Shown in pieces: positions 2,868-64,000 of a stretch of 64,000 bases of DNA (the stretch's first letter is position 1; every line of letters begins with the position of its first letter). The notes beneath the pieces were generated by a model. It was not told where the DNA came from. It saw only the letters and a program-made list of their open reading frames with translations, and made no database searches. A program made the position numbers and the translations under genes. Source of the DNA: Firmicutes bacterium CAG:534 (GTDB taxonomy: Bacteria; Pseudomonadota; Gammaproteobacteria; Enterobacterales; Succinivibrionaceae); assembly GCA_963650525.1 (NCBI GenBank), contig CAVJLP010000002.1:3816-67815 (forward strand). The letters are read 5' to 3'.

Positions 2868-4598
2868 TTATTTTATGACACCAAGTGCCTGTAAGTATAG
2901 ACGGTCGCGCTTGATATGCTCAGTGGACCAACGAATTTTCTTGGCAGCGGTGTTAACAGTGGTCTCCTCAATGCAATCAAAATAGGATAGCTGTTGCTGT
3001 AGCGAATGATTCTCCATCCAGCTTAACAGGGATTTCTCAGCACTTATATTTAGCTTGGTATCGTGAGTTTCATCACCGTTAGGTTTACCTAGCTTTTCTT
3101 TAACCTCATGAAGCTTGGCATAGAGGAAGCTGAGATATCCAAGGGCAACGAACTGTACCATCATACGGCCCTTTAGCACATCTGGAGTCCATACCCTAGG
3201 ACGAGCACCATCAGTGTATTCCTTATCAAGCTTAAAGCAGTCTTCGATACGATTGCGCTTACGATATTTCTTAAGAACCTCAAAGCAATCCTTCTCATGA
3301 TTGGTCAGGATAGTGAAAATGCCATAGCTCTTAGCTCTCTCGTCTAAGTACTTGGTATTGAAATCGATGGAAGTAATTTCACCTTTGCGACGATGAATAA
3401 TAAGCGCCTTCTTTATGGTATTTTGAGCAGACTGGGTAAATTCAGTCTCACCTGCTAAGAGTTGATTTTTAAGCTCTGTGAGCTTGTTATATTCGTTAAT
3501 ACATTGTTGCTGAGCCTTGGTCTCAGAGCGGAATACGTGTAGGTAAAGTCTAAAGGCTTTGGTCTCAATGTCGCCTTTCTTTTTATCTTTAGATGCATGT
3601 TGTCTTTCCCAAGAGAATTCATGCATTAGTCTTACGCTGAAGCCATGAATTTCATTTTGATCAAAGGGACATACTGTAGCCGCGCTATGTAAGGAGTCTA
3701 CCTTATCGATAAAGGCATCCTTGATCCATTTGACATTGTCTGGGCAGGCGGTAATAAAATCCATATGCGAGCGGACTAAATCAAGGATATTGTCTTCAGA
3801 GTAATATCCCTTATCTGTTACTAGCTGTGGACGTTTAAGCTTAAGCACATCAAATTGCTTTAAGGTATTCTCAATTGAGATCACATCAGGAATATTGCCT
3901 GGTTGTTTAGCAAAGGCTATAGGCTGGTGATTCTCCACAGAGTATAAGAGCAGTAGCTTAATGGTATTTAAGCCATCTCCGTCCTTGTTAAAGCCTTGTC
4001 TGGCTTCAATCTGCTTTTCAGAGTAGGTAGAGATAGTAGTAGAGTCATAAGCAATAGAATCGCCTTCTTTTAAGTGCGAAGCACGAGCCTTAAAGTATTT
4101 CTGAATAAAGGTTTCATCAAGTCCAATCTTTTCAAATAGATTGTGATAAGAGCTTTCTCCTATAAATCCATCATAGGGAATGGCATGGGTTAATTGCCAG
4201 TTCTCAAAGGCTGATAAGGTATTGTGATCAGATACCACCAAATAACGTGCCAAAGATATGATCTTTAATGCTGTGTCAGGATCATCTGCATAACATTTCT
4301 CTACATCGGCATCAATCTTTGAGCTCTTTCCTACCCAATCTAAGATCTCAGTCATCCCCACACGTACGCGTGTAGCTTCCCTTACCTGTTGCATCTCCTC
4401 CTTGGTGCGTCTTGGGCGAGTCTTTCTTATTTCACCAGTCTTAGGATCTTTAATGCCCATAAGCTTTTCAGACAAGATCTTCATCTTCTTAGTTTCGCGA
4501 TCATATTGAACTATACGCTTATAGACATAGATATCACCATTAGGACGTTTACGTTCAACAAGGATTTCACGAGTCTGACCAGTATAAGGGCGAGCCAT
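2868..4598 (-). CDS. IS4/IS1634-family DDE transposase
   Basis: 576 aa. DDE candidates are YDSTTIST, LVTDKGYYSEDN and the IS4 signature Y-x2-R-x3-E-x6-K, readable as YRKRNRIEDCFKLDK. Confidence 0.85.
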   Translation of the reverse strand: MARPYTGQTREILVERKRPNGDIYVYKRIVQYDRETKKMKILSEKLMGIKDPKTGEIRKTRPRRTKEEMQQVREATRVRVGMTEILDWVGKSSKIDADVEKCYADDPDTALKIISLARYLVVSDHNTLSAFENWQLTHAIPYDGFIGESSYHNLFEKIGLDETFIQKYFKARASHLKEGDSIAYDSTTISTYSEKQIEARQGFNKDGDGLNTIKLLLLYSVENHQPIAFAKQPGNIPDVISIENTLKQFDVLKLKRPQLVTDKGYYSEDNILDLVRSHMDFITACPDNVKWIKDAFIDKVDSLHSAATVCPFDQNEIHGFSVRLMHEFSWERQHASKDKKKGDIETKAFRLYLHVFRSETKAQQQCINEYNKLTELKNQLLAGETEFTQSAQNTIKKALIIHRRKGEITSIDFNTKYLDERAKSYGIFTILTNHEKDCFEVLKKYRKRNRIEDCFKLDKEYTDGARPRVWTPDVLKGRMMVQFVALGYLSFLYAKLHEVKEKLGKPNGDETHDTKLNISAEKSLLSWMENHSLQQQLSYFDCIEETTVNTAAKKIRWSTEHIKRDRLYLQALGVIK

Positions 4599-4751
4599 AG
4601 TTGATACCTCTATAATTTGGCTATAAATATATTTTGATTATATAGCCATATTAAATAAAAGTAAAGAAAAAAGTGACCAAAACAGCCACTTTTTTTTAAT
4701 TTTTGCTCAAATCCTATTAAAAGCTGCCCAAAATCATCAATTCAGGTCTTA

Positions 4752-4778
4752 TATATGGCTATGTTCGCAACTTTCAGG
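4752..4778. repeat. IS terminal inverted repeat (transposase-proximal end)
   Basis: tatatggctatgttcgcaactttcagg is the partner of 2838-2864. It lies about 150 nt upstream of the transposase start. Confidence 0.8.
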
Positions 4779-4784
4779 TTTCAA
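4779..4784. repeat. Target-site duplication TTTCAA (right copy)
   Basis: See 2832-2837. Confidence 0.8.
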
Positions 4785-4929
4785 TGCTCGGGTAGCCTTT
4801 TGGCCACTGATTAGGATTGTCATTAGCAATCATGAGTTTGCGGGAGCTTTCAATAAGCTTCATGATTTCATTGAGATCTCCTGTATCTGCAGTAACAATT
4901 GCAATATTATCTTTCAATTCCTGTCTCAT
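4780..4929 (-). pseudogene. GNAT family N-acetyltransferase, N-terminal fragment (residues 1-50)
   Basis: Hand translation of the minus strand from ATG 4929 gives MRQELKDNIAIVTADTGDLNEIMKLIESSRKLMIANDNPNQWPKGYPSIE. It then runs one codon into the IS repeat and hits TGA. This matches the expected N-terminus of the family (..NP.QW...YPS.E.I..D). Confidence 0.8.
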
Positions 4930-5029
4930 ACCGTGTCTACTTTGGGGGACATATCTGTTGTTAAAGTATTTGTATCAAGTGTTAAAAATCGCCCGTTTAC
5001 TTTCTAACTACAGCCGATAAAACAAACTA

Positions 5030-5060
5030 AAAAGGAGCTGATTTATTGGCAGCTCCTTTT
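5030..5060 (-). terminator. Rho-independent terminator downstream of the YkvI-like gene
   Basis: aaaaggagctg / cagctcctttt form an 11-bp stem with a 9-nt loop. On the minus strand it is followed by a T-rich tract (tagtttgtttt). Confidence 0.6.
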
Positions 5061-5090
5061 GAATTTCACTTCATTTTAAATTAGGGATTG

Positions 5091-6209
5091 TTATTTGTCT
5101 TGGGTGATCGCTTTATCCTTCATGAAGTACACCTTGGCAAACACGATCAGGATAAAGAAGATACCTATCTGGCCATTTAACGGATAAAGTATGCCGATTA
5201 GCTTGCCAAAGCCTATCTGTGCTCCAAAGTAGGCTATAACACCTAAAATCAGAGTGATAACTAATCTTACGCTCTTACTGCCGATAAACTGCTCGGTCTT
5301 GTTGATGATAACCCAGAACATAGGTGCTGCAGTTGAGTAGATGCCCAGCAGCAAAATCACAGAGAAGAACATTGCCAGTACAGGGGTAAACTGATTTGCC
5401 AGATAGATATTTGGAACTTGAAGTTTGGCAATTTCATCAGGGAAGCACAGCATGGCTGCCATCATAATGCCAGATGCCAGCATAATAACAACGCCACCAA
5501 TAAAGCCACCAAGGAAGGCCTCTTTGCTAGAGTTTGCTTTTGAGCCTAATGCAGTAAAGAAGGGGGTTGAACCAAAGACCATGCAGGTTGCATAGAGCAC
5601 ACCTGAAAACCAGGCAGAATCCAATGCAGAATACTGGGCAAACCACCATGATTTGGTTGCTCTTAAATCATAAATCACTTCCCAGTTCTTGGCCCAGTCA
5701 CCATTGAAGTTAATTAAGGTAACGATACCAATAATTAGAGTGAAAATGATGATCACAGGTCCGATGGTACCCACAAGATCTGCAAGTTTTTGCAGGCCAA
5801 GGAATACGGTTATAATGCATAATACTGCCATAAAAATGGAACCTGAGGCAGCAGGCAGACCAAAATATTCAGATGCCAGTGCGCCTGTTCCTGCTATCAT
5901 GATGGATACAACGCTAAACAGGAAGATGATGGTTAACCATTCAAGGAAAATTCCTAAATATTTACCACAGTAGTATCTGAATACCTGAGTGTGATGCTTG
6001 AGCTGAAGCTCGTAGCCCTTTTGCATTAGGGCTCCGCCTAGGAATGCAAACAGGAACATGCTGACAAGGATACCAATCAGCCCCTTGGGTCCGAAGGATC
6101 CAAAAAACTGCATGATTTCCTGACCTGTTGCGTAGCCTGAGCCAATGATGAAGGCACAATAGGCACCGGCAAACATAATGACATTGCGTATGCTTACTTT
6201 GTTGTTCAT
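5091..6209 (-). CDS. YkvI-family membrane protein (putative amino-acid/solute transporter)
   Basis: 372 aa, polytopic and very hydrophobic. The N-terminal motif GSGYATGQEIMQFF is typical of the YkvI/COG3949 family. Confidence 0.6.
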   Translation of the reverse strand: MNNKVSIRNVIMFAGAYCAFIIGSGYATGQEIMQFFGSFGPKGLIGILVSMFLFAFLGGALMQKGYELQLKHHTQVFRYYCGKYLGIFLEWLTIIFLFSVVSIMIAGTGALASEYFGLPAASGSIFMAVLCIITVFLGLQKLADLVGTIGPVIIIFTLIIGIVTLINFNGDWAKNWEVIYDLRATKSWWFAQYSALDSAWFSGVLYATCMVFGSTPFFTALGSKANSSKEAFLGGFIGGVVIMLASGIMMAAMLCFPDEIAKLQVPNIYLANQFTPVLAMFFSVILLLGIYSTAAPMFWVIINKTEQFIGSKSVRLVITLILGVIAYFGAQIGFGKLIGILYPLNGQIGIFFILIVFAKVYFMKDKAITQDK

Positions 6210-12655: not shown

Positions 12656-13585
12656 TCAGAGCTTGTCTTTAAAATGATGTTGCAGGAATGCCCAGATAGC
12701 AGCTTTGCCATCATCTAAAAAAGCGCATGTTCCCTCATTTTGATAATGAACTTTGTTTAATAAAAGTATATCGTATGGCAGATAATGCAAGCTTGCATCA
12801 TACGGCAGTAAGGATATCCCCTTAGATTTTAAAAATACCTTTAACGAGGCAAGATATGGGATATTGCTGTTTTCCTCTATATATATATCAGCACGTTTCT
12901 TCCTAAGATGCCAATTTGTTATATTTCGTGGTTCTACATTATTCAAAGTGCTATTTTGATTAAATCCCTGATCCTGAAGCGGTATGTTGTGAGCTGTATT
13001 AGGAGTTGCTGCTATATTTTCAGCTGAGATTGGGGGCTGGTAGAAATAGTCGTCAGGCAGTGGGATCTCATCAGAGGTCGTGTTAGAGGCTACAAAAGCT
13101 GCTGATTGCTCAGCATCATAAATACCTGTGTTGGATTTTTGAGTATTTAAAGTAGTTACAGCTTTTTTAGGTAAGTCTGAAGTTTTAGCAGTATCACCTG
13201 TAGTTGTGGCAGTTTCTACATCGGTGTAGGAGGTTTTGGTGTTTTGCCTGATTTCCTGATTTTGGGGAAGAGAAGCTGCGGGAGCGTTTGAATTCTCTGC
13301 TGTTTTAGCAATATCTTTATTGGATTGAATGGATGTTGATGCTTTATTTTGCGCAAATACTTTTTCTTGAGTATCAGCAATGTTTTGGCTGGATATTTCT
13401 TTGCTTTGTAGCTTTGGGATATTTTGATCTGCTATTTGATCAGATACGGTATTTTCGCTATTTGATAGCGTAGTGCAAGCATTTATGGTGACATTTTGTT
13501 GATCAATGCTACTGGAGCAATCTTTTTTAAGCAAAGATCTGCCCTTATTATTGAGTTTCCATCTAATGTCTAAATTGCTTTGCAT
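12656..13585 (-). CDS. Hypothetical S/T/N/Q-rich protein; possibly a divergent DNA polymerase III psi (HolD)-like protein
   Basis: 309 aa. About 200 aa of low-complexity sequence is flanked by an N-terminal RWKLNNKG (compare E. coli HolD DWQLQQLG) and a C-terminal GKAAIWAFLQHHF (compare ARAALWQQICTYEHDF). It lies near rimI, as holD does in E. coli. The functional call is speculative. Confidence 0.55.
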   Translation of the reverse strand: MQSNLDIRWKLNNKGRSLLKKDCSSSIDQQNVTINACTTLSNSENTVSDQIADQNIPKLQSKEISSQNIADTQEKVFAQNKASTSIQSNKDIAKTAENSNAPAASLPQNQEIRQNTKTSYTDVETATTTGDTAKTSDLPKKAVTTLNTQKSNTGIYDAEQSAAFVASNTTSDEIPLPDDYFYQPPISAENIAATPNTAHNIPLQDQGFNQNSTLNNVEPRNITNWHLRKKRADIYIEENSNIPYLASLKVFLKSKGISLLPYDASLHYLPYDILLLNKVHYQNEGTCAFLDDGKAAIWAFLQHHFKDKL

Positions 13586-15355: not shown

Positions 15356-16900
15356 ATGCTGATAGGTATTCCAAAAGAGAGTCTCAGCGGTGAGACTAGG
15401 GTTGCAGCAACCCCCGACACCGTAGCCAAGCTCTTAAAGCTCGGCTTTGAAGTTCAAGTGCAATCAGGAGCTGGTGCTCTCGCAAGCTTTACTGATGCAG
15501 CCTATGAAGAGGCAGGCGCCAAGGTCGCAACTTCAAAAGAAGTATGGGACAGCGATATTATCTTCAAGGTAAATGCTCCTAACGATGATGAGATTGGATA
15601 TACAAAGGAAGGACAGGTTTTAGTCTCTTTCATTCGTCCTGCTCAGAATAAAGAGTTAGTGGACAAGTTAAATGCCAAGAAGGTCACCGTAATGGCCATG
15701 GATATGGTGCCGAGAATTTCCCGTGCCCAGTCAATGGATGCATTGTCTTCTACTGCTAATATTTCAGGCTACCGTGCTGTAGTCGAAGCAGCTCATGCTT
15801 TCGGTAGATTCTTCACCGGTCAGGTTACTGCTGCAGGTAAGGTTCCTCCTGCAAAGGTCCTTGTCATCGGTGCAGGTGTTGCAGGCTTAGCTGCAATCGG
15901 TACTGCTCACTCCTTAGGCGCCGTTGTTCGTGCCTTCGATACCCGTGAGGTCGTAGCCGATCAGATTAAGTCCATGGGTGGTGAGTTCTTAAAGCTTGAT
16001 TACGTCGAAGAGGGTAAGGATTCCTCAGACGGCTATGCTAAGGTCATGTCCGAGGGCTATATCAAAGCTGAGATGGAACTCTTTGCCAAGCAGTGCAAAG
16101 AAGTCGATATCATCATTACTACCGCAGCAATTCCTGGTAAGAAGTCTCCTTTGCTTATTACCAAGGAAATGGTTGAGTCCATGAAATGCGGCTCTGTTGT
16201 TGTCGATATGGCAGCTGCCGGTGGCGGTAACTGTGCCTGTACTGTGCCAGGTGAGGTCATTACTACCGATAACGGCGTTACCGTGATTGGTTACACTGAT
16301 TTGGCATCCCGTTTGCCTGCTCAGTCCTCACAGCTGTATTCCACCAACCTTGTCAACCTAGCCAAGCTTTTGTGCAAGAACAAGGATGGTCAGATCGATC
16401 TTAATTTTGATGACGTAGTCATTCGTAATATGACCGTCACTAAAGATGGTGAGGTTACCTTCCCTCCTCCGAAGATCTCCGTATCCGCAGCTCCTGCAGC
16501 ACAGAAGCCTGCTGAGGCTCCTAAGGTAGAGGTCCATAAGGTCTCTCCTGTATTAAAGATTGGCTGTGCCGCTTTGGCTGTGATCGCATTCATCCTTATT
16601 GGTATGTTTGCTCCGCAGAAGTTCATGCCTCACTTTGCAGTGTTCGTTTTGGCCATCGTAGTCGGCTACTATGTAGTCTGGAACGTAAGCCATTCTCTGC
16701 ATACTCCGTTGATGTCTGTTACTAATGCAATTTCAGGTATTATCGTGGTCGGTGCAATGGAGCAGGTTCATTCATCAGGCGGTAGCGTGATTGCAGGTAT
16801 CCTTGCCTTCATCGGTACTGTGATTGTTTCTATTAACATCTTCGGTGGCTTCGCAGTTACACGTCGCATGCTGGGAATGTTTAGAAAACAGGGCAAATAA
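15356..16900 (+). CDS. pntA: NAD(P) transhydrogenase subunit alpha
   Basis: MLIGIPKE...[21 protein letters not shown], and a C-terminal 4-TM domain. Followed by pntB. Confidence 0.95.
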
Positions 16901-16919
16901 GGGAACAGGAGAATAAAAA

Positions 16920-18353
16920 ATGTCAGAAGGCTTAACTTATATTGCCTACATCTTCTCAGCTCTGCTGTTCATTCTAGCTTTGGCAGGTTTGTCAAAGCAG
17001 GAAACTGCTAAGCTTGGTTGCTATTCAGGCGTTGCCGGTATGGCTATTGCACTTTTGGCCACCTTTACCAAGGCCGATGGTGCAACTGCGGTTGTAATTA
17101 TTATCTTCGCTATGGTCGTCGGTGCTGTTGTTGGCTTGATTGCTGCACGTAAGGTACAGATGACCCAGATGCCAGAGCTTATCGCTTGCCTGCATTCCTT
17201 CGTAGGTTTGTGCGCAGTATTGGTAGGCTTTAATACCTATCTAGAGCTAGACTCTCTTGCTGATGGCGGCGTTACTCTTGCAACTGCACTTCAGACTTCA
17301 GGCGAATTAGGCATTCACTTAGGTGAAATCTTCTTAGGTATCTTCATCGGCGCTGTAACCTTCACCGGTTCCATCATTGCCTATGGTAAGTTAAACGGTA
17401 CCTATAAGCTTCGCATCTTTAAGTCCGCTCCTTTGGTTCTTCCTGCTAATCACTGGATCAACTTAGGCGCTTTGGTTGTGTGCTTCCTGCTTATGATCCT
17501 ATTCGTAAGCGGTGGTGTTGATGCCTCAGCAGCTCCTTTGCTTTTGATGACCATTATCGCATTGGCCTTTGGTGTTAACCTCGTTGTCGCCATCGGTGGT
17601 GCTGATATGCCGGTTGTTATTTCCATGCTGAACTCCTATTCAGGATGGGCTGCAGCAGCCTCAGGCTTCATGCTCGACAATGATCTCCTCATCGTAACTG
17701 GTGCATTGGTTGGCTCCTCTGGTGCCATCCTCTCTTACATCATGTGTAAGGCTATGAACCGCTCCTTCATTTCTGTTATTGCTGGTGGTTTCGGCAATGC
17801 TCCTACCTCTACTGAGGATAAGGACTACGGTGAGTTCCATGAGATGAAGGTAAACGATGTAGCAGAGCTTTTGAAGAATTCTTCATCAGTTATTATTGCT
17901 CCAGGCTACGGTATGGCTGTAGCTCAGGCTCAGAATGCTGTAGCAACCTTGGTTGAAAAGCTTCAGGCTCGTAACATCGAGGTTCGTTTTGCAATTCATC
18001 CAGTAGCAGGCCGTCTGCCAGGCCACATGAATGTGCTTTTGGCTGAAGCCAAGGTTCCTTACGATATCGTATTGGAAATGGATGAAATCAATGATGATTT
18101 CGAGAATACCGATACTGTACTGGTTATTGGTGCTAACGATACTGTCAACCCTGCAGCTGAGGAAGATCCTTCTTCACCTATTGCAGGTATGCCGGTTCTC
18201 ACCGTTTGGAAGGCTCGTAACGTTGTCGTCTTCAAGCGTTCTATGAATCCAGGTTATGCCGGTGTTCAGAATCCTTTGTTCTTCAAGGACAATGCTTCAA
18301 TGTGCTTTGGTGATGCCAAGAAGACTGTCGAGGAAATCGACGCTCTCTTGTAA
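16920..18353 (+). CDS. pntB: NAD(P) transhydrogenase subunit beta
   Basis: N-terminal polytopic domain and a C-terminal NADP(H) domain ([37 protein letters not shown]). Confidence 0.95.
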
Positions 18354-18411: not shown

Positions 18412-18483
18412 GATATGAGCGTGCTTTCAGATTTGTAATTTTTGGCATAATTGCAAAACGTAATCATTTCAAAGGAGTACAGC

Positions 18484-18762
18484 ATGGGTTTAGCCTCCCT
18501 TATTTGCGGCCTTGTCACGCTCTGTATGGCTTTGTTTTCTGCAACTGGTCTGGGGGTAGTCGGCATAGCTTTAGGTATTATAGGAATTATCCTTGGCGCA
18601 TTGGGACGCAAGGATGCCGATCAGCGTAGCATGGCAACCGCCGGCCTTATTATTTCGATAATTGGTCTATTCATAAATATCATCGTGCTCGTTGCCTGTG
18701 TAGGATGTTTAGCTGCCTTAGGTATTGGCCTTGGTGCAGTTGCAGCAGGTGGCGGACTTTAG
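18484..18762 (+). CDS. Small Gly/Ile-rich membrane protein (DUF4190-like)
   Basis: 92 aa from ATG 18484, with SD aaggag 7 nt upstream. Three hydrophobic G/I/L-rich segments. The TTG 18451 start in the ORF track was rejected. Confidence 0.55.
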   Translation: MGLASLICGLVTLCMALFSATGLGVVGIALGIIGIILGALGRKDADQRSMATAGLIISIIGLFINIIVLVACVGCLAALGIGLGAVAAGGGL

Positions 18763-19535
18763 TGCACCCTTTTTTAAATATTCTTGGGCACAATGTGCCT
18801 CTTTATGGCCTGATGATCGCACTTGGTATGCTGATCTCAGGTAGCATTGCCTATCAGACAGCAAAGCATCGTCATCTTGATGCTGATGGGGTGTTGGCTA
18901 TAAGCGGATATGCTGTTTTAGGCGGTTTCATTGGAGCTAAGCTTTTATATCTTGCAACTGAGTACAGACAGCTTGATATAAGTCGGGTATTTGATCCTAG
19001 CTACAGACTAAGTCTTATTAATGCAAGCGGCTTTGTCGTAATAGGCGGTCTCATTAGTGGCGCCCTTGTAGGCTTTCTAGCTGCCAGATTTCATAATTTA
19101 GATTATCGAAGGCTCCTTGAAAATACCATTTTTGCTCTGCCTCTCGCTCAGGGCTTTGGGCGGATAGGTTGTTTTTTTGCAGGTTGCTGTTATGGCGTGC
19201 ATTATGATGGTCTTTTAAGCGTGACCTTTCCTCATGGATCAATTCCGGGATCTGAGCCGAGACTTCCAATTCAGCTTATTTCTGCAACAGTGCTTTTTAT
19301 TTTGTCCTTAATTTTATATTTCATCTCTAAAACAGCTTATAGGAAGTATCTGATAGTGATCTATATCGGCTCTTATGCCTCTCTTAGATTTATTATTGAA
19401 TTCTTCCGTGCAGATGAAGTGCGCGGAATATTTGCCGGCTTGTCACTTTCGCAGTATCTGTCGTTGTTGCTTTTATCCTTGATGTCTGCATATGTTCTTT
19501 TAAGGGAGTTTATCCTAAAAAGAACACATGCCTAA
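18762..19535 (+). CDS. lgt: Prolipoprotein diacylglyceryl transferase
   Basis: VHPFLNILGHNVPLYGLMIALGML.., GAKLLY, GRIGCFFAGCCYG. The proposed GTG start overlaps the upstream TAG (TAGTG). The first 19 codons of the ORF-track start (18705) lie inside the previous gene. Confidence 0.8.
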   Translation: MHPFLNILGHNVPLYGLMIALGMLISGSIAYQTAKHRHLDADGVLAISGYAVLGGFIGAKLLYLATEYRQLDISRVFDPSYRLSLINASGFVVIGGLISGALVGFLAARFHNLDYRRLLENTIFALPLAQGFGRIGCFFAGCCYGVHYDGLLSVTFPHGSIPGSEPRLPIQLISATVLFILSLILYFISKTAYRKYLIVIYIGSYASLRFIIEFFRADEVRGIFAGLSLSQYLSLLLLSLMSAYVLLREFILKRTHA

Positions 19536-19564
19536 ATATAGGTTGCAAGCTATATTGCTTGTGA

Positions 19565-20089
19565 CTACTGCTTTAAAAAGACCCACATACAGGCTGTTTT
19601 CCCAGCAATGGCATTTCCACCTGCACACGTTACACGATCAATTTTAGCTGTGCTTTTGACGGCTATCATGGAGACTACAGTTGTCTTGATCTTGTCGGCA
19701 AGTTTCTGCAGATCTATCTTGATAATTTCATCTCCGGCAGTGACGCTGTCACCCACCTTTTTTAGGGCAGTAAAGCCCTCTCCTGAGAAAAAATCAGTTC
19801 CGATACCAAACTTTACATAGATTTCGGCACCGCATTCTGTTTTTATTACAAAAGCAGAATTTGATGTAAGTATGCGGGAGATTACTCCATTGCAGGGCGC
19901 AACAAGGCAGTCATTATCGGGAATTAAGGCACAGCCATCACCTGCAATACGCTCACAGATCACCGGATCTGGAACGTCATCTAAGGCAATGAGGGTTCCT
20001 GATACTGGAGCTGTAAGCTCTAGATCAGCCTCTTCATTTGATTCTTTGGAGCCTGAGGAGAAAGAGAATAGTTTGGATAAAAATGACAT
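19565..20089 (-). CDS. PTS EIIA-Glc (Crr) homologue lacking both active-site histidines
   Basis: Ungapped alignment with E. coli Crr over about 80 residues. I count 37 identities by hand (APxSG, DVPD, GDG, VAP, NxAF, FGIxT, GEGF). H75 is Ser (TSNSAF) and H90 is Lys (YVKFGIGT). Confidence 0.85.
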   Translation of the reverse strand: MSFLSKLFSFSSGSKESNEEADLELTAPVSGTLIALDDVPDPVICERIAGDGCALIPDNDCLVAPCNGVISRILTSNSAFVIKTECGAEIYVKFGIGTDFFSGEGFTALKKVGDSVTAGDEIIKIDLQKLADKIKTTVVSMIAVKSTAKIDRVTCAGGNAIAGKTACMWVFLKQ

Positions 20090-20094
20090 AGGGA

Positions 20095-21759
20095 TCAGCT
20101 GTTTAGGTTATCGATGATAGAGGCAATTTCCTGTCCTCTAAAGGTGTTCATAACTTTGTCAAAAAGTTCTTCATCAAAGTATGGCTCATTGCCGTCAAGA
20201 TCCAGTCTTTCAACAGCCGTACGTAATGATGCAATTTCAAAGCTGTCTACGGTTGCATAGGATACACCTATGTGCCAGAAAAAAGGCATAAGCTCAGCTC
20301 GTCCTGCAAAGCGTCCTGCTACACCTACAGGGATCCCGGAGCGGTGGGCAGCTCTTGCAGCAGTTACAATAAGCTTTGCAAGAGGTGGGGTAAAGGTTGA
20401 ATCATCAGGACGTGGTGCACAAGCGTATTCGGCAAGTGATGAAGTTCCGATAATAAACATGGAAAATTCACCGGCAAAGGCCTCGGCAGATAAAACCGCT
20501 GCCGGAGTTTCGATCATAAGTGCCAGTTCATATTGTGAGTGGGGCTTGTGCTCAAAGCTAAGCTCCTTTTGACAATCTGATGCTAGCTTCTTTAAATATC
20601 TTGCCTCGGAGAATCTTGTGACCAGTGGAAAGACTATGGTGAGCTTGCGTGCAGGATCTGATTGCATCAGTGCACGTAGCTGTTTTTTTAACAGCGATGA
20701 GCTTACGCAGGCTCCATAGCCGCGAAGTGGACCTGTGGTATCACCGGAGAGTTCAAAAATAGGTTTTTTATCACCAGCAAAATCAAAAGTTCTTGCGGTA
20801 ATGGGAAGATTAGGATTAATAGGCTTGATGATTGCGGCAAAGCGTTCAATCATTTCTTTTTCATCAGGCTCATGATCCATACTCAAAAATAAGAATTCTG
20901 AGCGCAACAGCCCTAGTCCATAGTGTTTGTAGACGTTATTTAAGCGCCCGTTCTGGAAGGTACCTATGGAGCAGGCAATAGTAATAGGCAGTGTGCTGTC
21001 ATCATCGGCAACATCTGCAAAAAAGCCTTGTTTGGCAATTGCCGCTTCACACATTTCAAAGGGGGCATCAACTGTAACACAGCCGGTATTGGCATCTAAT
21101 AGTAATCTTGAGCCCTGAGTTATTTCTGTTGCGCCTGTGGCTCCGAAAATTGATGGAATAGAAAGTTCACGCAGGGCAGTTGCAAGATGTCCTGTAGTAC
21201 GGCCCTGCTCTAGGATCACGCCTTTAACAAAGCGAGTTTCGAGAGATAGAAGCTGGGCTGGAGTTAATACCTTAGCCACAATAATGGTGTCTTCGGTAAG
21301 GGTTGGCATATCCGTGATAGTTACACCGCGCATAAACAGAGCCTGTACAAACTCTCTTATCAGAAGCTCAATTGAGCGTAGCTCATACAGGTTGCTTTGA
21401 TCGTCTAAATCATATTGAAATTTAAAGAACTTTAATCCTTGAAGATATACGGTTCTAGCTGCCATCGGAGCTGTATCACCGTTTTTTATAAGCTCAATTA
21501 CCTTTTCAACATTATCAGCGGCGGTGAGATAGCCTGCCGTAGCACCATAGAGATCGCGTTGACTGTCAAGTGCAGGATTGGCAGTCTGACGCAGACGATC
21601 GGAGAAAATCTTTAGCGTGCGACGATATACCTCTGACTCTCCTTCAGGATCTAAGGCCCAGGGTCTGTCAAAGTCAGGATTGTATACCGCACGGGTAAGC
21701 ACTCGTGCGTGTCCTGAACTAATACCTGATGATGAGGGAATGCCGTTAATGGTGTACAT
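20095..21759 (-). CDS. PTS Enzyme I (PtsI) homologue with a degenerate PEP-binding/catalytic site
   Basis: Collinear with E. coli EI: GIPSSSGISSG, GRTTGH, LRSEFLF, ARTFDFAGDK, MIETPAA, IGTSSL. Catalytic positions differ (see finding). Confidence 0.8.
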   Translation of the reverse strand: MYTINGIPSSSGISSGHARVLTRAVYNPDFDRPWALDPEGESEVYRRTLKIFSDRLRQTANPALDSQRDLYGATAGYLTAADNVEKVIELIKNGDTAPMAARTVYLQGLKFFKFQYDLDDQSNLYELRSIELLIREFVQALFMRGVTITDMPTLTEDTIIVAKVLTPAQLLSLETRFVKGVILEQGRTTGHLATALRELSIPSIFGATGATEITQGSRLLLDANTGCVTVDAPFEMCEAAIAKQGFFADVADDDSTLPITIACSIGTFQNGRLNNVYKHYGLGLLRSEFLFLSMDHEPDEKEMIERFAAIIKPINPNLPITARTFDFAGDKKPIFELSGDTTGPLRGYGACVSSSLLKKQLRALMQSDPARKLTIVFPLVTRFSEARYLKKLASDCQKELSFEHKPHSQYELALMIETPAAVLSAEAFAGEFSMFIIGTSSLAEYACAPRPDDSTFTPPLAKLIVTAARAAHRSGIPVGVAGRFAGRAELMPFFWHIGVSYATVDSFEIASLRTAVERLDLDGNEPYFDEELFDKVMNTFRGQEIASIIDNLNS

Positions 21760-21819
21760 ATTAACTAAAGCCTCTTAATGTCGCCTTAATCTTCTATTTT
21801 CTAGATCGTAACTTTTTAG

Positions 21820-22605
21820 CTAATTATTCGCCACTGTTTTGATATCAGTTACTGCGTTCTTTCTCAATTCCACATAATATTTGGTGCCGGCACAGACTGC
21901 AGCTGGCGGAATAATAAGATTTAATAGCGGAATGGCAAGACATATTGCTATTACTGCACCAATAATGAAGGTAGGTAATGTTGATGATTTGAGATCCTCA
22001 CGCATTAATTTAAAGGAAATCTTGTGATTATCATAGGCATAGTCAACGTACTGAAGACAGCCCATCCAAGATCCCAGCAAAAACCAGGGCACAGGTGAAA
22101 TAAGGTTCACTCCTGGAATTACGGATATGATAAGACACAGCAAAGCTCTTGGTAAAAAGAAGCACTGCTTGGCAAATTCGCGTTTTAGAATTCTGGGAAT
22201 ATCCCTGATGATCTCAGAGATGCTGGCATCAGGCGAGCTTGTCCCCTTAATGGCCATCTCTGCTTTGTCTGCTAGCAGACCATAGAAGGGGGAGGCTATG
22301 ATAGTTGCTATGGTTGAAAAGAAATAGCAACATACAAAGATGATCATGAGTGCTGCAATAACCGTCAGCAGATAGAGCAGAAACATCAAATAGTCTGGCA
22401 GATATTCTTTTAAGGAGAAGATCACCTCATTGATTAGTGAGTAGGCAAGGTAGCCTCCTAAGCTTAGGAGTAATAAATTTACGATTACGGGAATAATCAC
22501 GTAGGCACGGCATTCCTTGGAAAGCGCTAATTTAAAGCCCTGAGCAAGACAATCAAAGGTTGTACCGAGGCTTACACTATTTCTTTTTACATTGTTGTCA
22601 GACAT
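21820..22605 (-). CDS. cysZ: Sulfate transporter CysZ
   Basis: Collinear with E. coli CysZ: YFFSTIA..IASPFYGLLA, DIPRILKRE, LPRA, DYAYDNHK, IPLLNL. ATG 22605 (SD taaggac) is preferred over the longer ORF-track start. Confidence 0.85.
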   Translation of the reverse strand: MSDNNVKRNSVSLGTTFDCLAQGFKLALSKECRAYVIIPVIVNLLLLSLGGYLAYSLINEVIFSLKEYLPDYLMFLLYLLTVIAALMIIFVCCYFFSTIATIIASPFYGLLADKAEMAIKGTSSPDASISEIIRDIPRILKREFAKQCFFLPRALLCLIISVIPGVNLISPVPWFLLGSWMGCLQYVDYAYDNHKISFKLMREDLKSSTLPTFIIGAVIAICLAIPLLNLIIPPAAVCAGTKYYVELRKNAVTDIKTVANN

Positions 22606-22719
22606 GGGAGTGTCCTTAGTGCATTTTGCAGGTAAAATATTAACCAAATTTTTTTAGATTGCGAAAGTCTATAAAAGGAATTCTATTTTAGCAAAGGCAT
22701 CAACTTACTGGGGGTTTGC

Positions 22720-23496
22720 ATGTCTCTTAATGATTCAAGTGCGATCATTTTAATTGTAGGCGCTTTGGCAGTGATCGCATTCGTGATCCACGGCTTGTGG
22801 TTTTCAGGCAAAATCTCAAATCGTAAGTTAAGTAAAACGTCATCTTCCGATCAGGCTTTGCAAAATGCCAATGGTCTTGGCAAGGTGCGTATTGTTTCAA
22901 GCGGCAGTGATGAGCAGAATACTGCCAGTTCTCCTAAGTCTTTTAAATATATGGATTCTCAGGTGCAGCTTGAGGAACCCAAAAAAGAGCATGAAGCTGT
23001 TGACACGTTGAAAATGGAGGGGCACTCCATCGAGCCTGAAGCTAAGATTAAGCCTCAGGATATATATGAAATCAATATTGAATCGGAAAACGGTCACCCT
23101 TTTGCAGGTGATCATATAAATGAATTATTTTCCGAGTTCGGCTTTGTTAGAACAAAGCAGGGGCTGTATGTCTGTCCTGAAGCTGTGGGCAAGGATTTAT
23201 CAGAAACTCAGATAGTATTTCGTATCTGCTCTTTAACTAAGCCCTACAGCTTTCCTGAGGACATGAAAAATTATGAAACTCCGGCTATTGCTCTTTATAT
23301 GAAGCTTCCGGAGATTGGCAAGGGCGAAGGCTATTATACCTGCATGTATGCTGCCGCCTCTGAGATCGCCCGTCGCCTAGGTGGAAAATTTACCACTGCT
23401 GAGGGTGAACCACTAAGTGAGCAGATATTGAATGATACTCTGGATCTTTTACACAACTATGATGAGCCTGCTAACATCAGGCATCAGGTCTATTAA
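22720..23496 (+). CDS. zipA: Cell division protein ZipA (short form)
   Basis: N-terminal TM IILIVGALAVIAFVIHGLWFS and a C-terminal FtsZ-binding-type domain (..FRICSLTKPYSFPEDM..YETPAIALYMKLP). Divergent from cysZ and upstream of ligA, as in E. coli. Confidence 0.8.
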   Translation: MSLNDSSAIILIVGALAVIAFVIHGLWFSGKISNRKLSKTSSSDQALQNANGLGKVRIVSSGSDEQNTASSPKSFKYMDSQVQLEEPKKEHEAVDTLKMEGHSIEPEAKIKPQDIYEINIESENGHPFAGDHINELFSEFGFVRTKQGLYVCPEAVGKDLSETQIVFRICSLTKPYSFPEDMKNYETPAIALYMKLPEIGKGEGYYTCMYAAASEIARRLGGKFTTAEGEPLSEQILNDTLDLLHNYDEPANIRHQVY

Positions 23497-23591: not shown

Positions 23592-25676
<2,085 letters not shown>

Positions 25677-61159: not shown

Positions 61160-63406
61160 TCATTCATAGCGTTTGATGAATTTTTTTAATTTGTCCTGCG
61201 GTGCTGTTTTAAAGAGCCTGTCTCGCATCTTAGTTGCTGGGGCACTTGAGCCTTCATGATCAAAGCCAAGTTTCCCTTTTAAAAACTGATGATGCTCACC
61301 CATGATGTAGTCAGGCAATAGCCTAAATAACACTTTTGCATCCTCAATAAAATAGCCAAAGCTTTTGATGACATCGAGGGCTACTTTTACGGCTTTATGT
61401 TCGTTTTCTATGTGATAGAGCGCATTTAAGGCCATGATAAACATTGATTGCATGGTTCCTTCAAGATCGCAGGCAAGACATCTTGACTGAGGATCCTCGT
61501 AGATACGCCAAAGCCTCTCTGATGCCTGCTCCATAGCTTTTACAAGCGCAGTTCTGCCCTCAAGGTTCTTATTGAATACCTCAAGAATCTGTGCACAGGC
61601 ATCATCAAATTCCAAAGATTTGCAGAGCCTTTTAGCCTCATCATGAGTGAGAGCTAAATCAATGCTCATGCAGTTATGGATGTAGGCAAGAATTTCCTGC
61701 TTGTTTATATTATTAAATGATGAGGTATCAATTTCCTCACTACGCTTTGGAATAGTGCCGGAAATTTTGGCGCCACCTGAGCAGTTATATATTTTTGTTT
61801 TTCCCTGAGTGCTGTGGATGGCCTCATTGATAACTAATTCCATGTGACGGTTTGCCAGACGGAAGATATAGTTTGCCTGAACCTCACCTCCGAAGTTGCC
61901 AGGCAGCGTGATTCCTTGTCTAGTATCATAATTACCGCCATTATCTGCAAGGCCGTGAATTGAATAGGTTGCAGAATATTTTGAGTGCATGGATGTAGCA
62001 TCCACAGGCTTGCCGTTATCAATACCGAACAGATATATATTGCAAAAGCCAAGACTTAAGGCTGCTGAGATCCCAAGATTACCCACAATGGGATTCATGA
62101 CATTGATTGTTCTGATTTTGGTACCGTTTTTAATTCTTGAAAATATCCGCCAGTAAAAGGGCTCATCAGGCTTACCGAAAATTGCAGTATGCTCGAATCT
62201 GTCTTGGGTATAGGGATGAATGACATCGCCAGCAAGCAAAGTAAGTGAATGTATAAAATTTCTGTCAGGGATTGCATCAAGGGTTTCTGCAATCTCGGGA
62301 GTTCTTTCGGTTGTAGCATAGAAATCAGGCTTGATACCTGCGTGATACAGGGTATCAAGTGCAGTGCCACAGGCAATAATAAGCGCCTTGTCTTGATTGT
62401 GGCGTAAAAAAGCAATGTCCTTATCAAGAGATGGGCCATTGCCTATGATGAAAAGAGGAAGATTGCACAAGCTTTGGGGAAGAGCCACATCTGCTCTTAG
62501 GAACTTATGATGGTGAGTTGCAGCATATAATCCATGAGAGGTGCCAAAAAGGTGATCATCAAAAAATCCCATGGCAGCATGCAGACGGTAATAATCCTGA
62601 AGCAAAGTATCAACCAGAAGACGGATTTCATCAGATGCATAGTGAATAAGGCACAGGCACTGGGCTGAGAGAAATCTGCCATGATGCTCATAGTACGAGG
62701 TAAGATCTAGTGACAGTTGCTCAGGAGTCTGTCCTAGAAGAAAGTTTATGCCAAAATCATTTGCACGCAGATATTTTAAAAATGCTCTCCAGTCAAAGGC
62801 ATGCAAGGACGCAAAGAACATGTCGAGATCAGGCTCGACAATTACAATATTTATAAGCTCAGCCCTAGAGCACAGGCTCTCTAACACATATCCAAGACCT
62901 AGGCCTACGATGATGGCATTGGGAATGGATTTTAGCTCCTCTGCACTGTAGAGCTTTTCATCTTTTGTAGCGTTGCTGACTTTGTTTACAGCCTCTGATA
63001 AATAACGAAAATGGATCTGTCCGTAGGGATCACTTTCCTTTTTATAGACGGTACCTGTAAAAATATGATCCTTTAGGGCCTTTTGAGCCTGAGCGTCACA
63101 AAGCGCTCTGGGATCATCGCATTTATAGAGTATGTCCTGATGGCGATCGGGAAATTGCAGATTGGGAATACCGTTTTCTGTGCAGAAAAAATCAAGTGTC
63201 GTCGTCGGATGATAGTGTTCAAAGGTGCAGGCTATATCCGGAATAAATTCTCTGAAGGCTTCTATATTCTGTTTAAAGCGCTCAATTAACAGATCCGACA
63301 TTGAGCTTTGCAGTCTAGAAAGCTTGCGCACGCGATCAATTTCAGCAGCGGTTAAGGGAGTTTCTTTTAAGGCAAGATGCTCGATCTCAGAGAGGCTGTA
63401 AGTCAT
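61160..63406 (-). CDS. Motility-associated factor (Maf) glycosyltransferase family protein (DUF115/MptE-like core)
   Basis: 748 aa. The central signature LFIIGNGPSLDKDIAFL....ALIIACGTAL and overall architecture are typical of Campylobacter/Helicobacter/Aeromonas Maf flagellin nonulosonic-acid transferases. Confidence 0.75.
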   Translation of the reverse strand: MTYSLSEIEHLALKETPLTAAEIDRVRKLSRLQSSMSDLLIERFKQNIEAFREFIPDIACTFEHYHPTTTLDFFCTENGIPNLQFPDRHQDILYKCDDPRALCDAQAQKALKDHIFTGTVYKKESDPYGQIHFRYLSEAVNKVSNATKDEKLYSAEELKSIPNAIIVGLGLGYVLESLCSRAELINIVIVEPDLDMFFASLHAFDWRAFLKYLRANDFGINFLLGQTPEQLSLDLTSYYEHHGRFLSAQCLCLIHYASDEIRLLVDTLLQDYYRLHAAMGFFDDHLFGTSHGLYAATHHHKFLRADVALPQSLCNLPLFIIGNGPSLDKDIAFLRHNQDKALIIACGTALDTLYHAGIKPDFYATTERTPEIAETLDAIPDRNFIHSLTLLAGDVIHPYTQDRFEHTAIFGKPDEPFYWRIFSRIKNGTKIRTINVMNPIVGNLGISAALSLGFCNIYLFGIDNGKPVDATSMHSKYSATYSIHGLADNGGNYDTRQGITLPGNFGGEVQANYIFRLANRHMELVINEAIHSTQGKTKIYNCSGGAKISGTIPKRSEEIDTSSFNNINKQEILAYIHNCMSIDLALTHDEAKRLCKSLEFDDACAQILEVFNKNLEGRTALVKAMEQASERLWRIYEDPQSRCLACDLEGTMQSMFIMALNALYHIENEHKAVKVALDVIKSFGYFIEDAKVLFRLLPDYIMGEHHQFLKGKLGFDHEGSSAPATKMRDRLFKTAPQDKLKKFIKRYE

Positions 63407-63726
63407 AGATATTTGACCAGTTTGTTCTGCATATAGGTTTTGGCTCCGATACTCTTTTTGCGCATGCTGACCATTTCCTGTTTGATCTGCATCTTGGTTT
63501 CAGAGGCCTCACTCATATTTTCGGTAAGTCTATCTAGAAGTACTTTAATTTCACTTTGGTATGGTTGTAGCTCTGCACTAGGAAAAGCTTTGAGATTGCT
63601 ACAAAGTTCAGATAGCTTTGCACTGAGATAGGCTTCATCTTGAAAGCTATGATCGCTGTGCAGGCGTTGCAGTCTGTCAAGCATAGTCATCCCCTCTGCA
63701 ATTAGATCTTTTATCTCAGTACTCAT
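63403..63726 (-). CDS. Hypothetical helical/coiled-coil protein translationally coupled to maf
   Basis: About 107 aa from ATG 63726 (GGAG 7 nt upstream; the ORF track starts at TTG 63750). Its stop overlaps the maf start (ATGA). No recognisable family. Confidence 0.5.
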   Translation of the reverse strand: MSTEIKDLIAEGMTMLDRLQRLHSDHSFQDEAYLSAKLSELCSNLKAFPSAELQPYQSEIKVLLDRLTENMSEASETKMQIKQEMVSMRKKSIGAKTYMQNKLVKYL

Positions 63727-63746
63727 CAGCATGCTCCAAGCAGTGT

Positions 63747-64000
63747 TCAAAATATCCTATGTCCTATAAATAGTCCGAAAAGTGCAAGGAGCATACTTCC
63801 CAAAAGATGGCAGAGAGTGTGGACAATTGCTTTAAGGGGAGCATCAGACAGGAGAAGATTTACAGATTCTAGGGAAAAGGTTGAAAAGGTAGTGAGACTT
63901 CCAAGAAAGCCTGTTATAAGAAAAAGCCTTAGGGTAGCGCTTTGATGGAATCTGCCTGCCAAATATGCCGTAATGAGCCCTATTAAAAAGGCGCCCAGAA
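63747..64000 (-). CDS. crcB: Fluoride ion channel CrcB (5' end outside the window)
   Basis: The frame stays open to the window edge (..LGAFLIGLITAYLAGRF..). Contains the CrcB signature ITGFLGSLTTFSTFSLE. Confidence 0.85.
   Translation of the reverse strand, partial: LGAFLIGLITAYLAGRFHQSATLRLFLITGFLGSLTTFSTFSLESVNLLLSDAPLKAIVHTLCHLLGSMLLALFGLFIGHRIF

Follow-up and report, generated by a model that had tools for sequence, protein, structure and literature searches.

What can a phosphocarrier still do once the residues that carry the phosphoryl group are gone? EIIA-Glc and Enzyme I (EI) are textbook phosphocarriers of the phosphoenolpyruvate (PEP)-dependent phosphotransferase system (PTS), and signalling through this system is normally read via the phosphorylation state of EIIA-Glc. 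The question is raised by a 64,000-nucleotide stretch of DNA (the window; positions 3,816 to 67,815 of contig CAVJLP010000002.1) from a member of the Succinivibrionaceae, a family that is abundant in rumen and gut microbiomes. The window encodes a homologue of EIIA-Glc that lacks both catalytic histidines, and this gene lies directly downstream of an EI-like gene. The two genes are referred to here as the variant crr and the variant ptsI, and their products as the variant EIIA and the variant EI. An initial annotation of the window had considered the crr homologue alone and had proposed that it encodes a retained pseudo-phosphocarrier. The present analysis extends that proposal, as the finding is broader than Crr alone and concerns a family-wide, selected and doubly remodelled ptsI-crr remnant. 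The Succinivibrionaceae keep an EI and an EIIA whose catalytic residues have been replaced, and the role left to these proteins is most likely one of binding or regulation that does not depend on phosphorylation.

Sequence characteristics of the variant EIIA

The variant crr occupies positions 19565..20089 of the minus strand, as defined by the open reading frame (ORF) map of the window, a Pfam PF00358 match and alignment to Crr structures. The ORF is full length and intact, as initially described, with an ATG start and an uninterrupted reading frame of 174 amino acids. Its tight packing behind the EI-like gene was likewise confirmed in the sequence, in that the EI-like ORF ends with its stop codon at position 20095 and the ATG of the variant crr follows after a 5-nt spacer (20090..20094, minus strand). 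A spacer of this size is consistent with tight coupling of the two genes; in relatives it measures 2-87 nt.

The variant EIIA matches the Pfam profile PTS_EIIA_1 (PF00358) with an E-value of 2e-31 and 108.8 bits, against a cut-off (GA) of 27.2, and the match spans positions 2-124 of the 127 profile positions. In phmmer comparisons with PDB sequences, the core of the protein aligned without gaps to the Vibrio EIIA-Glc 3OUR_B (E=1.2e-31) and to the E. coli Crr entries 1GGR and 1F3G. The protein is 35% identical to E. coli Crr overall, and the DVPD, GDG, VAP, FGIGT and GEGF motifs are all kept. In the alignments to the PDB sequences, Ser78 of the variant EIIA corresponds to E. coli His75 ('tsnSaf' versus 'etnHaf') and Lys93 corresponds to E. 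coli His90 ('yvKfgigt' versus 'fvHfgidt'). Neither the phospho-acceptor His90 nor its catalytic partner His75 is present. The profile alignment to PF00358 and the gapless alignments to Crr structures therefore agree on the replacements H75 to S and H90 to K that had been read by hand. A rigorous alignment that restores an acceptor histidine, the outcome named at the outset as fatal to this assignment, fails to materialize. The residue count of the protein is 0 His and 7 Cys, so no alternative alignment could place a histidine at the acceptor position. On this sequence, the variant EIIA cannot bear a phosphoryl group on the canonical histidines.

Comparison with EIIA-Glc/Crr of enterics and Vibrio (PF00358; 1F3G, 3OUR_B) summarizes what has been kept and what has been lost. 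The variant EIIA shares the fold, the length, 35-38% identity and the N-terminal tail motif M-[GS]-[LF]-[FL]-x-K-L with these proteins. Its gene also shares the chromosomal position of E. coli MG1655 crr, downstream of ptsI and in the neighbourhood of cysZ, zipA and ligA. The variant differs from Crr in the absence of His75 and His90, in having 7 Cys rather than 0, and in the fixed changes F41I, K69R, F88Y and D94G. It also scores under both NCBIfam cut-offs (NF006962, 138 bits vs 212; TIGR00830, 97.0 bits vs 97.5). The gene is thus the positional orthologue of crr in a member of the Succinivibrionaceae (Gammaproteobacteria, Aeromonadales). Its product is a crr orthologue by homology and position but fails EIIA-Glc membership by the defining chemistry.

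E. coli Crr contains 0 Cys and 2 His, the variant EIIA 7 Cys and 0 His. Cysteines were considered as family-wide alternative acceptors or metal ligands and rejected in this role, as C45, C66 and C167 are strictly conserved in the subclade of the window alone. C66 is replaced by Phe in the Anaerobiospirillum thomasii protein, and some members of the clade have only 1-2 Cys. A redox or metal site specific to the subclade of the window (C45, C66, C167) is conceivable. A weak Biotin_lipoyl Pfam match in the variant EIIA (E=5e-4, below the cut-off) was also dismissed because it reflects the hybrid motif that canonical Crr shares.

Distribution of the His-less clade and selection on its members

Relatives of the variant crr were collected by a word-indexed search, a profile search of 1.84 billion representatives and a second profile search. 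His-less relatives numbered 24 and 28 in two overlapping samples, and 0 of these sequences had a histidine at position 75 or 90 (E. coli numbering). A survey of orthologues for the same substitutions had been proposed initially. It returned a non-histidine residue at both sites throughout the clade, with the identity of that residue varying between S, T and N at position 75 and between K, R, T, S, G and A at position 90. Among the best 150 representatives of the exhaustive profile search, 143 aligned domains had a histidine at both sites. In a neighbour-joining tree, 23 of 23 His-less sequences fell into one group that contained no canonical sequence. The clade, put at 50 or more relatives, spans several genera, with intact ORFs at 46-88% identity. 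Its named members are Succinivibrio, Succinatimonas, 'Succinivibrionaceae bacterium' and 'Aeromonadales bacterium', and both histidines are likewise absent from the crr product encoded next to a variant EI listed by NCBI under Anaerobiospirillum thomasii. By taxonomy, all of these named organisms belong to the family Succinivibrionaceae.

The ratio of nonsynonymous to synonymous substitution rates (dN/dS) was estimated by the Nei-Gojobori method between the window and its closest relatives. For the variant crr the ratio was 0.058 against locus L001 and 0.070 against locus L002, at a dS of ~1.1-1.3; for the variant ptsI it was 0.021. Values for other genes of the locus were 0.054 (ligA), 0.108 (zipA), 0.025 (cysZ) and ~0.015 (pntA/pntB). 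The variant crr, whose dN/dS had been put forward as a check on neutral decay, is therefore constrained to a degree comparable to neighbouring housekeeping genes and near that of ligA. Purifying selection acts strongly on both the variant crr and the variant ptsI. None of the loci inspected contained a frameshifted or truncated copy. The monophyly of the His-less clade, the dN/dS of 0.058-0.070 and the intact predicted fold described below bear out the initial view that the gene is a retained pseudo-phosphocarrier and not a decaying one.

The two loci used for these ratios, L001 (CAVHVI010000104.1) and L002 (CAVFIO010000014.1), come from bins labelled 'Bacteroidaceae bacterium' and 'Akkermansia muciniphila'. 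The L001 crr product is 87% identical to that of the window. The gene order and proteins of L002 fit the Succinivibrionaceae-type locus of the window, with PntA/B 99% and EI 97% identical. Both are probably mis-binned contigs.

EIIA-Glc homologues that lack one or both histidines also occur sporadically beyond the Succinivibrionaceae clade. At positions 75 and 90, the residues are F and R in P0229 (14 cluster members). They are N and Q in P0217, a tandem EIIA of Megasphaera and Caecibacter, where the change affects the second domain. One of the two histidines remains in P0285 (H/Q), P0335 (H/T), P0257 (N/H) and P0318 (Q/H).

Predicted fold and conserved interaction face

An AlphaFold2 model of the variant EIIA built on a 34-sequence alignment reached a predicted local distance difference test (pLDDT) score of 87.3 and a predicted template modelling (pTM) score of 0.83. 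An earlier model from a 10-sequence alignment (pLDDT 51.8) was not used. Foldseek comparison of the model with 3OUR_B, 2MP0_B and 1F3G gave a target-normalised template modelling (TM) score of 0.93 with root-mean-square deviations of 1.6-1.8 A. The Crr fold is therefore preserved in the predicted structure, and the superposition on Crr called for initially comes out in favour of a retained protein (TM 0.93).

The former active-site face was defined as E. coli Crr residues 36-47, 68-78 and 86-97. Within the clade, conservation of this face was 0.773, versus 0.673 for the remainder of the protein. The interaction face carries clade-specific fixed changes (F41I, K69R, F/L88Y and D94G), and further clade-specific residues are fixed at M141, I142, S146, W169 and L172 (window numbering). 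Unlike the surrounding face, the former catalytic positions 75 and 90 vary within the clade. This is the pattern of a constrained interaction surface with a dispensable catalytic centre. The N-terminal tail of the variant EIIA (MSFLSKLF...) resembles the membrane-anchor tail of Crr (MGLFDKLK...), and this resemblance to Crr suggests that the protein may be anchored at the membrane.

The upstream gene encodes a remodelled Enzyme I

The variant ptsI (20095..21759, minus strand) encodes an Enzyme-I-like protein of 554 amino acids. The three-domain architecture of EI is recognizable, with Pfam matches to PF00391 and PF02896 and a marginal match to PF05524 (23.4 bits vs a cut-off of 24.4). Scores against the NCBIfam models fall below the cut-offs (TIGR01417, 170.6 bits vs 341.7; NF008382, 131.3 bits vs 824). 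Residues were read by alignment to E. coli PtsI (MG1655) in a set of 121 sequences, consisting of the window protein and 120 listed homologues with 100-40% identity to it. The window protein was also aligned to 2HRO and 2WQD.

In EI structures, E431 and D455 are ligands of Mg2+, R358 and R465 hold the PEP carboxylate and C502 protonates the enolate. Substitutions of C502, E431 and D455 strongly impair EI (2026 PNAS; PMC13598208). The equivalent of the phosphorylated histidine of E. coli, His189 (His191 in the window), is invariant in all 121 homologues of the variant EI. R296, R332, D335 and E431 are also invariant across the set, and K340 is kept in 98% or more. The remaining positions have been replaced: R358 by Gly and D455 by Ser in 121/121 homologues, N454 by Ser and C502 by Ala in 120/121, and E504 by Arg in 115/121. 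In the window protein, the GTNDL motif thereby reads GTSSL (N454S, D455S). R465 of E. coli PtsI falls within a 7-residue deletion, and the 465 position is variable (P in the window). As read from these alignments, the variant EI is without the residues needed for PEP-dependent autophosphorylation. Its replacement residues are invariant across homologues with as little as 40% identity, for which reason the pocket appears re-specified and not abandoned. Compared with Enzyme I (PtsI, TIGR01417) and with PtsP/EI-Ntr, the variant EI shares the three-domain architecture and the position of the phospho-His motif. It differs in R358G, N454S, D455S, the R465-loop deletion, C502A, E504R and the low TIGR01417 score. 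The adjacent EI-like gene thus does not encode a canonical Enzyme I and has been remodelled like the variant crr.

Among the three folded domains of the variant EI, conservation is lowest in the HPr-binding alpha-subdomain (0.58 vs 0.70-0.72). Some Anaerobiospirillum-type proteins of 651-681 amino acids (P0088, P0077 and P0070) contain Ala/Gly/Ser-rich low-complexity insertions of ~100 residues or more. The location of these insertions, in the alpha-helical, HPr-binding subdomain, suggests relaxed constraint there.

The A. thomasii locus also encodes a canonical PtsP in which the TSH, GWRGIR, GSNDL, DR and CGE motifs are kept. This second protein serves as an internal control, and its presence indicates that the changes in the variant EI are specific to this orthologue. 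A. thomasii may therefore maintain a nitrogen-type PTS alongside the remodelled pair. The PtsP is a GAF-EI protein of 756 amino acids (L005, 2666-4936, minus strand) encoded ~3 kb from the cysZ-ptsI-crr triad, and its gene adjoins rppH-like NUDIX and mutH genes.

Organization of the locus and HPr searches

In E. coli MG1655 the gene order is ligA-zipA-cysZ-cysK-ptsH-ptsI-crr. In the window, zipA (22720-23496) and ligA (23604-25676) lie on the plus strand as divergent synteny anchors, and cysZ, the variant ptsI and the variant crr follow on the minus strand. The cysZ gene (21820..22647, minus strand) encodes a sulfate transporter that scores 260 bits against NCBIfam NF003433 (cut-off 140). Its true start may be an internal ATG, since the family match starts at residue 28. 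Judged by gene order, the locus is the ancestral ptsHI-crr locus without cysK and ptsH. Downstream of the variant crr and convergent with it lie the transhydrogenase genes pntA and pntB (15356..18353, plus strand), called from their ORFs and from PNT Pfam domains in the loci. They are kept in most relatives and absent from A. thomasii L005.

The gene layout was read in 13 loci of relatives (L002, L003, L005/6, L007/8, L009/10 and L011-L016). The triad of cysZ, variant ptsI and variant crr was found in 13/13 of these, with cysZ directly upstream and co-directional in each. Spacing between cysZ and the variant ptsI varies from an overlap of 1 nt to a gap of 215 nt, and the two genes overlap or lie 0-3 nt apart in L003, L005, L012, L013, L014, L015 and L016. 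The zipA/ligA neighbours are also present in L007, L009 and L014-L016. From gene order and spacing, cysZ, the variant ptsI and the variant crr are probably co-transcribed. Promoter and terminator scans of 19300-22900 returned no more sites than shuffled controls and are uninformative on operon structure.

An apparent EI-EIIA fusion of 738 amino acids (P0024; cluster members P0161, P0165 and others) occurs on many contigs in public protein databases. It was rejected as a genuine fusion in the single contig whose DNA was read. On L011, where P0024 spans 3318-5534, codon 550 of the DNA is a TAG stop, translated as Gln under an alternative code, and the two ORFs are in frame by chance around that stop.

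Searches for a partner phosphocarrier were negative. Using E. coli HPr and NPr as queries, tblastn detected no HPr/NPr gene in the 64-kb window or in ~197 kb of Succinivibrionaceae loci, and the same queries recovered the E. coli positive control. The gap between cysZ and the variant ptsI is 60 nt, too short to accommodate an HPr gene. Pfam scans, which covered most ORFs of at least 100 amino acids in the window, found no EIIB, EIIC or HPr, and the ORFs scanned are ordinary gammaproteobacterial housekeeping genes.

Proposed function and alternative explanations

We favour, with a probability of roughly 0.6, the interpretation that the variant EI and the variant EIIA form a family-wide pseudo-PTS module that acts by binding and not by phosphotransfer. 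What deserves attention is the complete ptsI-crr remnant and not Crr alone, because the variant EI is remodelled, ptsH and cysK are missing and the pair is tied to cysZ. In the scenario envisaged, the ptsH-ptsI-crr operon of a Succinivibrionaceae ancestor would have lost ptsH (and cysK), and the remaining ptsI and crr would have been re-purposed instead of lost. The variant EIIA would act as a phosphorylation-independent binding or regulatory subunit through its old partner-binding face, possibly near the membrane, and its activity would be set by its expression or by the variant EI. Candidate targets would include CysZ and the classical EIIA-Glc targets; the initial annotation had suggested that a permanently unphosphorylated mimic might act in inducer exclusion or in the control of glycerol kinase and adenylate cyclase. 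The variant EI, in which the swivelling His domain and the arginines that bind phosphate are retained, would be a ligand-binding sensor or scaffold and not a PEP-dependent kinase.

Several considerations weigh against this interpretation. The regulatory role envisaged for the variant EIIA is argued by analogy, from dephospho-EIIA-Glc. Phospho-chemistry could persist in the variant EI, given that His189 is invariant and that Arg/Lys residues that bind phosphate are retained. The adjacency of cysZ to pts genes is ancestral and present in E. coli too, and for that reason is on its own weak functional evidence. As the EI-EIIA fusion proved to be an artefact, it lends no Rosetta-stone support to an interaction between the two proteins. 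In addition, the hydrophobic moment of the N-terminal tail of the variant EIIA, compared with shuffled sequences, gave p ~0.09, and many relatives were not significant.

The main alternative is a non-canonical phosphorelay. Under this alternative the variant EI would form phospho-His189 from a non-PEP donor, or by reverse transfer from NPr~P or HPr~P produced by PtsP, with the variant EIIA serving as an adaptor or accepting a phosphoryl group on a residue other than His. In its favour, the invariant His189 is joined by the invariant R296, R332 and E431 and the retained K340, and the essentially invariant G358, S454, S455, A502 and R504 speak for a site that was re-specified and not abandoned; the canonical PtsP at the A. 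thomasii locus adds that a phospho-donor pathway may be present. However, the variable positions 75 and 90 of the variant EIIA provide no conserved nucleophile, and the APC-motif Cys is missing in the A. thomasii protein. In the variant EI, D455, which ligates Mg2+, and C502, which donates the proton, are both gone, and no HPr-like gene was present in any locus searched. We consider such a relay unlikely. A dedicated regulatory role, in which the variant EIIA would bind the sulfate permease CysZ at the membrane under the control of the variant EI, by analogy with inducer exclusion of LacY/MalK, draws on the co-directional cysZ directly upstream in every locus read. The stop and start codons that overlap or lie 0-3 nt apart in seven loci, and the likeness of the N-terminal tail to the Crr membrane anchor, point the same way. 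As the ancestral adjacency need not be functional and the amphipathicity test of the tail was not significant, this specific target seems quite improbable.

Two further explanations are refuted by the data. If the gene were a recently inactivated crr (together with ptsI) still open by chance, the loss of both catalytic histidines and the NCBIfam equivalog scores under the cut-offs would be accounted for. Neutral decay is nevertheless incompatible with a dN/dS of 0.06-0.07 at dS >1, intact ORFs in several genera, clade-specific invariant residues, a fold predicted with confidence and 0 frameshifted copies in the loci examined. An alignment artefact that conceals an acceptor histidine fares no better, given a protein with 0 His whose HMMER alignments, with Pfam as well as with the sequences of three PDB entries, are gapless across both sites. 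A more ambitious proposal, advanced tentatively and judged unlikely, is that the two proteins constitute a new module derived from the PTS core, in which the variant EI reads a non-PEP metabolite and the His-less EIIA controls a membrane protein such as CysZ. The variant EI would use its rebuilt pocket (R296, R332, K340, E431, S454, S455, A502 and R504) together with His189, either to bind a non-PEP metabolite or to accept the phosphoryl group of one. If this were true, a PTS would have acquired a different input, and its output would no longer depend on phosphorylation.

Comparison with known systems and annotation

The next-best Foldseek neighbours of the variant EIIA after EIIA-Glc are EnvC, NlpD and DipM, degenerate LytM (dLytM) proteins with a related beta-sandwich fold. 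In the dLytM factors, the M23-peptidase domain is catalytically dead and serves in cell-wall amidase activation through protein binding. Their family and pathway are different, and no sequence homology to the variant EIIA was detected. The shared concept is that metal-binding or catalytic His residues were lost and the protein retained under selection, with a regulatory role suggested for the variant EIIA. A dead-domain regulator is the functionally closest concept for the variant EIIA. The variant crr combines the attributes of a pseudoenzyme, namely lost catalytic residues, purifying selection and an intact predicted fold.

PTS proteins without a permease are also known from regulatory 'incomplete' systems, such as EI-Ntr/NPr/EIIA-Ntr of Brucella (PMC2937029). 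The PTS-Ntr and Brucella systems keep all phosphorylatable histidines and signal by phosphorylation, whereas the acceptor histidine of the variant EIIA and the PEP site of the variant EI are gone. In the literature we found no description of a naturally His-less EIIA-Glc clade or of this EI variant, and nothing relevant on the PTS of Succinivibrionaceae, Anaerobiospirillum or Succinivibrio, or on an EI without Cys502.

In public databases the variant crr product is labelled 'PTS glucose transporter subunit IIA' and relatives of the variant EI are labelled 'putative PEP-binding protein' (NCBI); one record is labelled 'phosphoenolpyruvate-protein phosphotransferase'. With these PTS labels in place, a glucose PTS may be predicted in error when the metabolism of Succinivibrionaceae is reconstructed. 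Biochemical confirmation of the favoured pseudo-PTS interpretation would provide a natural experiment that parts the binding functions of EIIA-Glc from phosphotransfer. A conserved protein derived from EI, its pocket re-specified, would be defined as well.

Other features of the window

Three further ORFs, all on the minus strand, had no Pfam match at the thresholds used: 5091-6209 (372 amino acids), 12656-13585 (309 amino acids) and 63403-63750 (115 amino acids). An Lgt-like protein is encoded at 18705-19535 on the plus strand, convergent with the variant crr. It matches Pfam LGT at 1e-38 and scores 172.9 bits against the NCBIfam lgt model, whose cut-off is 334, and may be a divergent paralogue. 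A 103-amino-acid ORF at 18451-18762 (plus strand) with a weak DUF4190 match overlaps the 5' end of the Lgt-like gene. At 2868-4598 (minus strand) the window encodes a DDE transposase (DDE_Tnp_1) of 576 amino acids, which indicates that it contains an insertion sequence.

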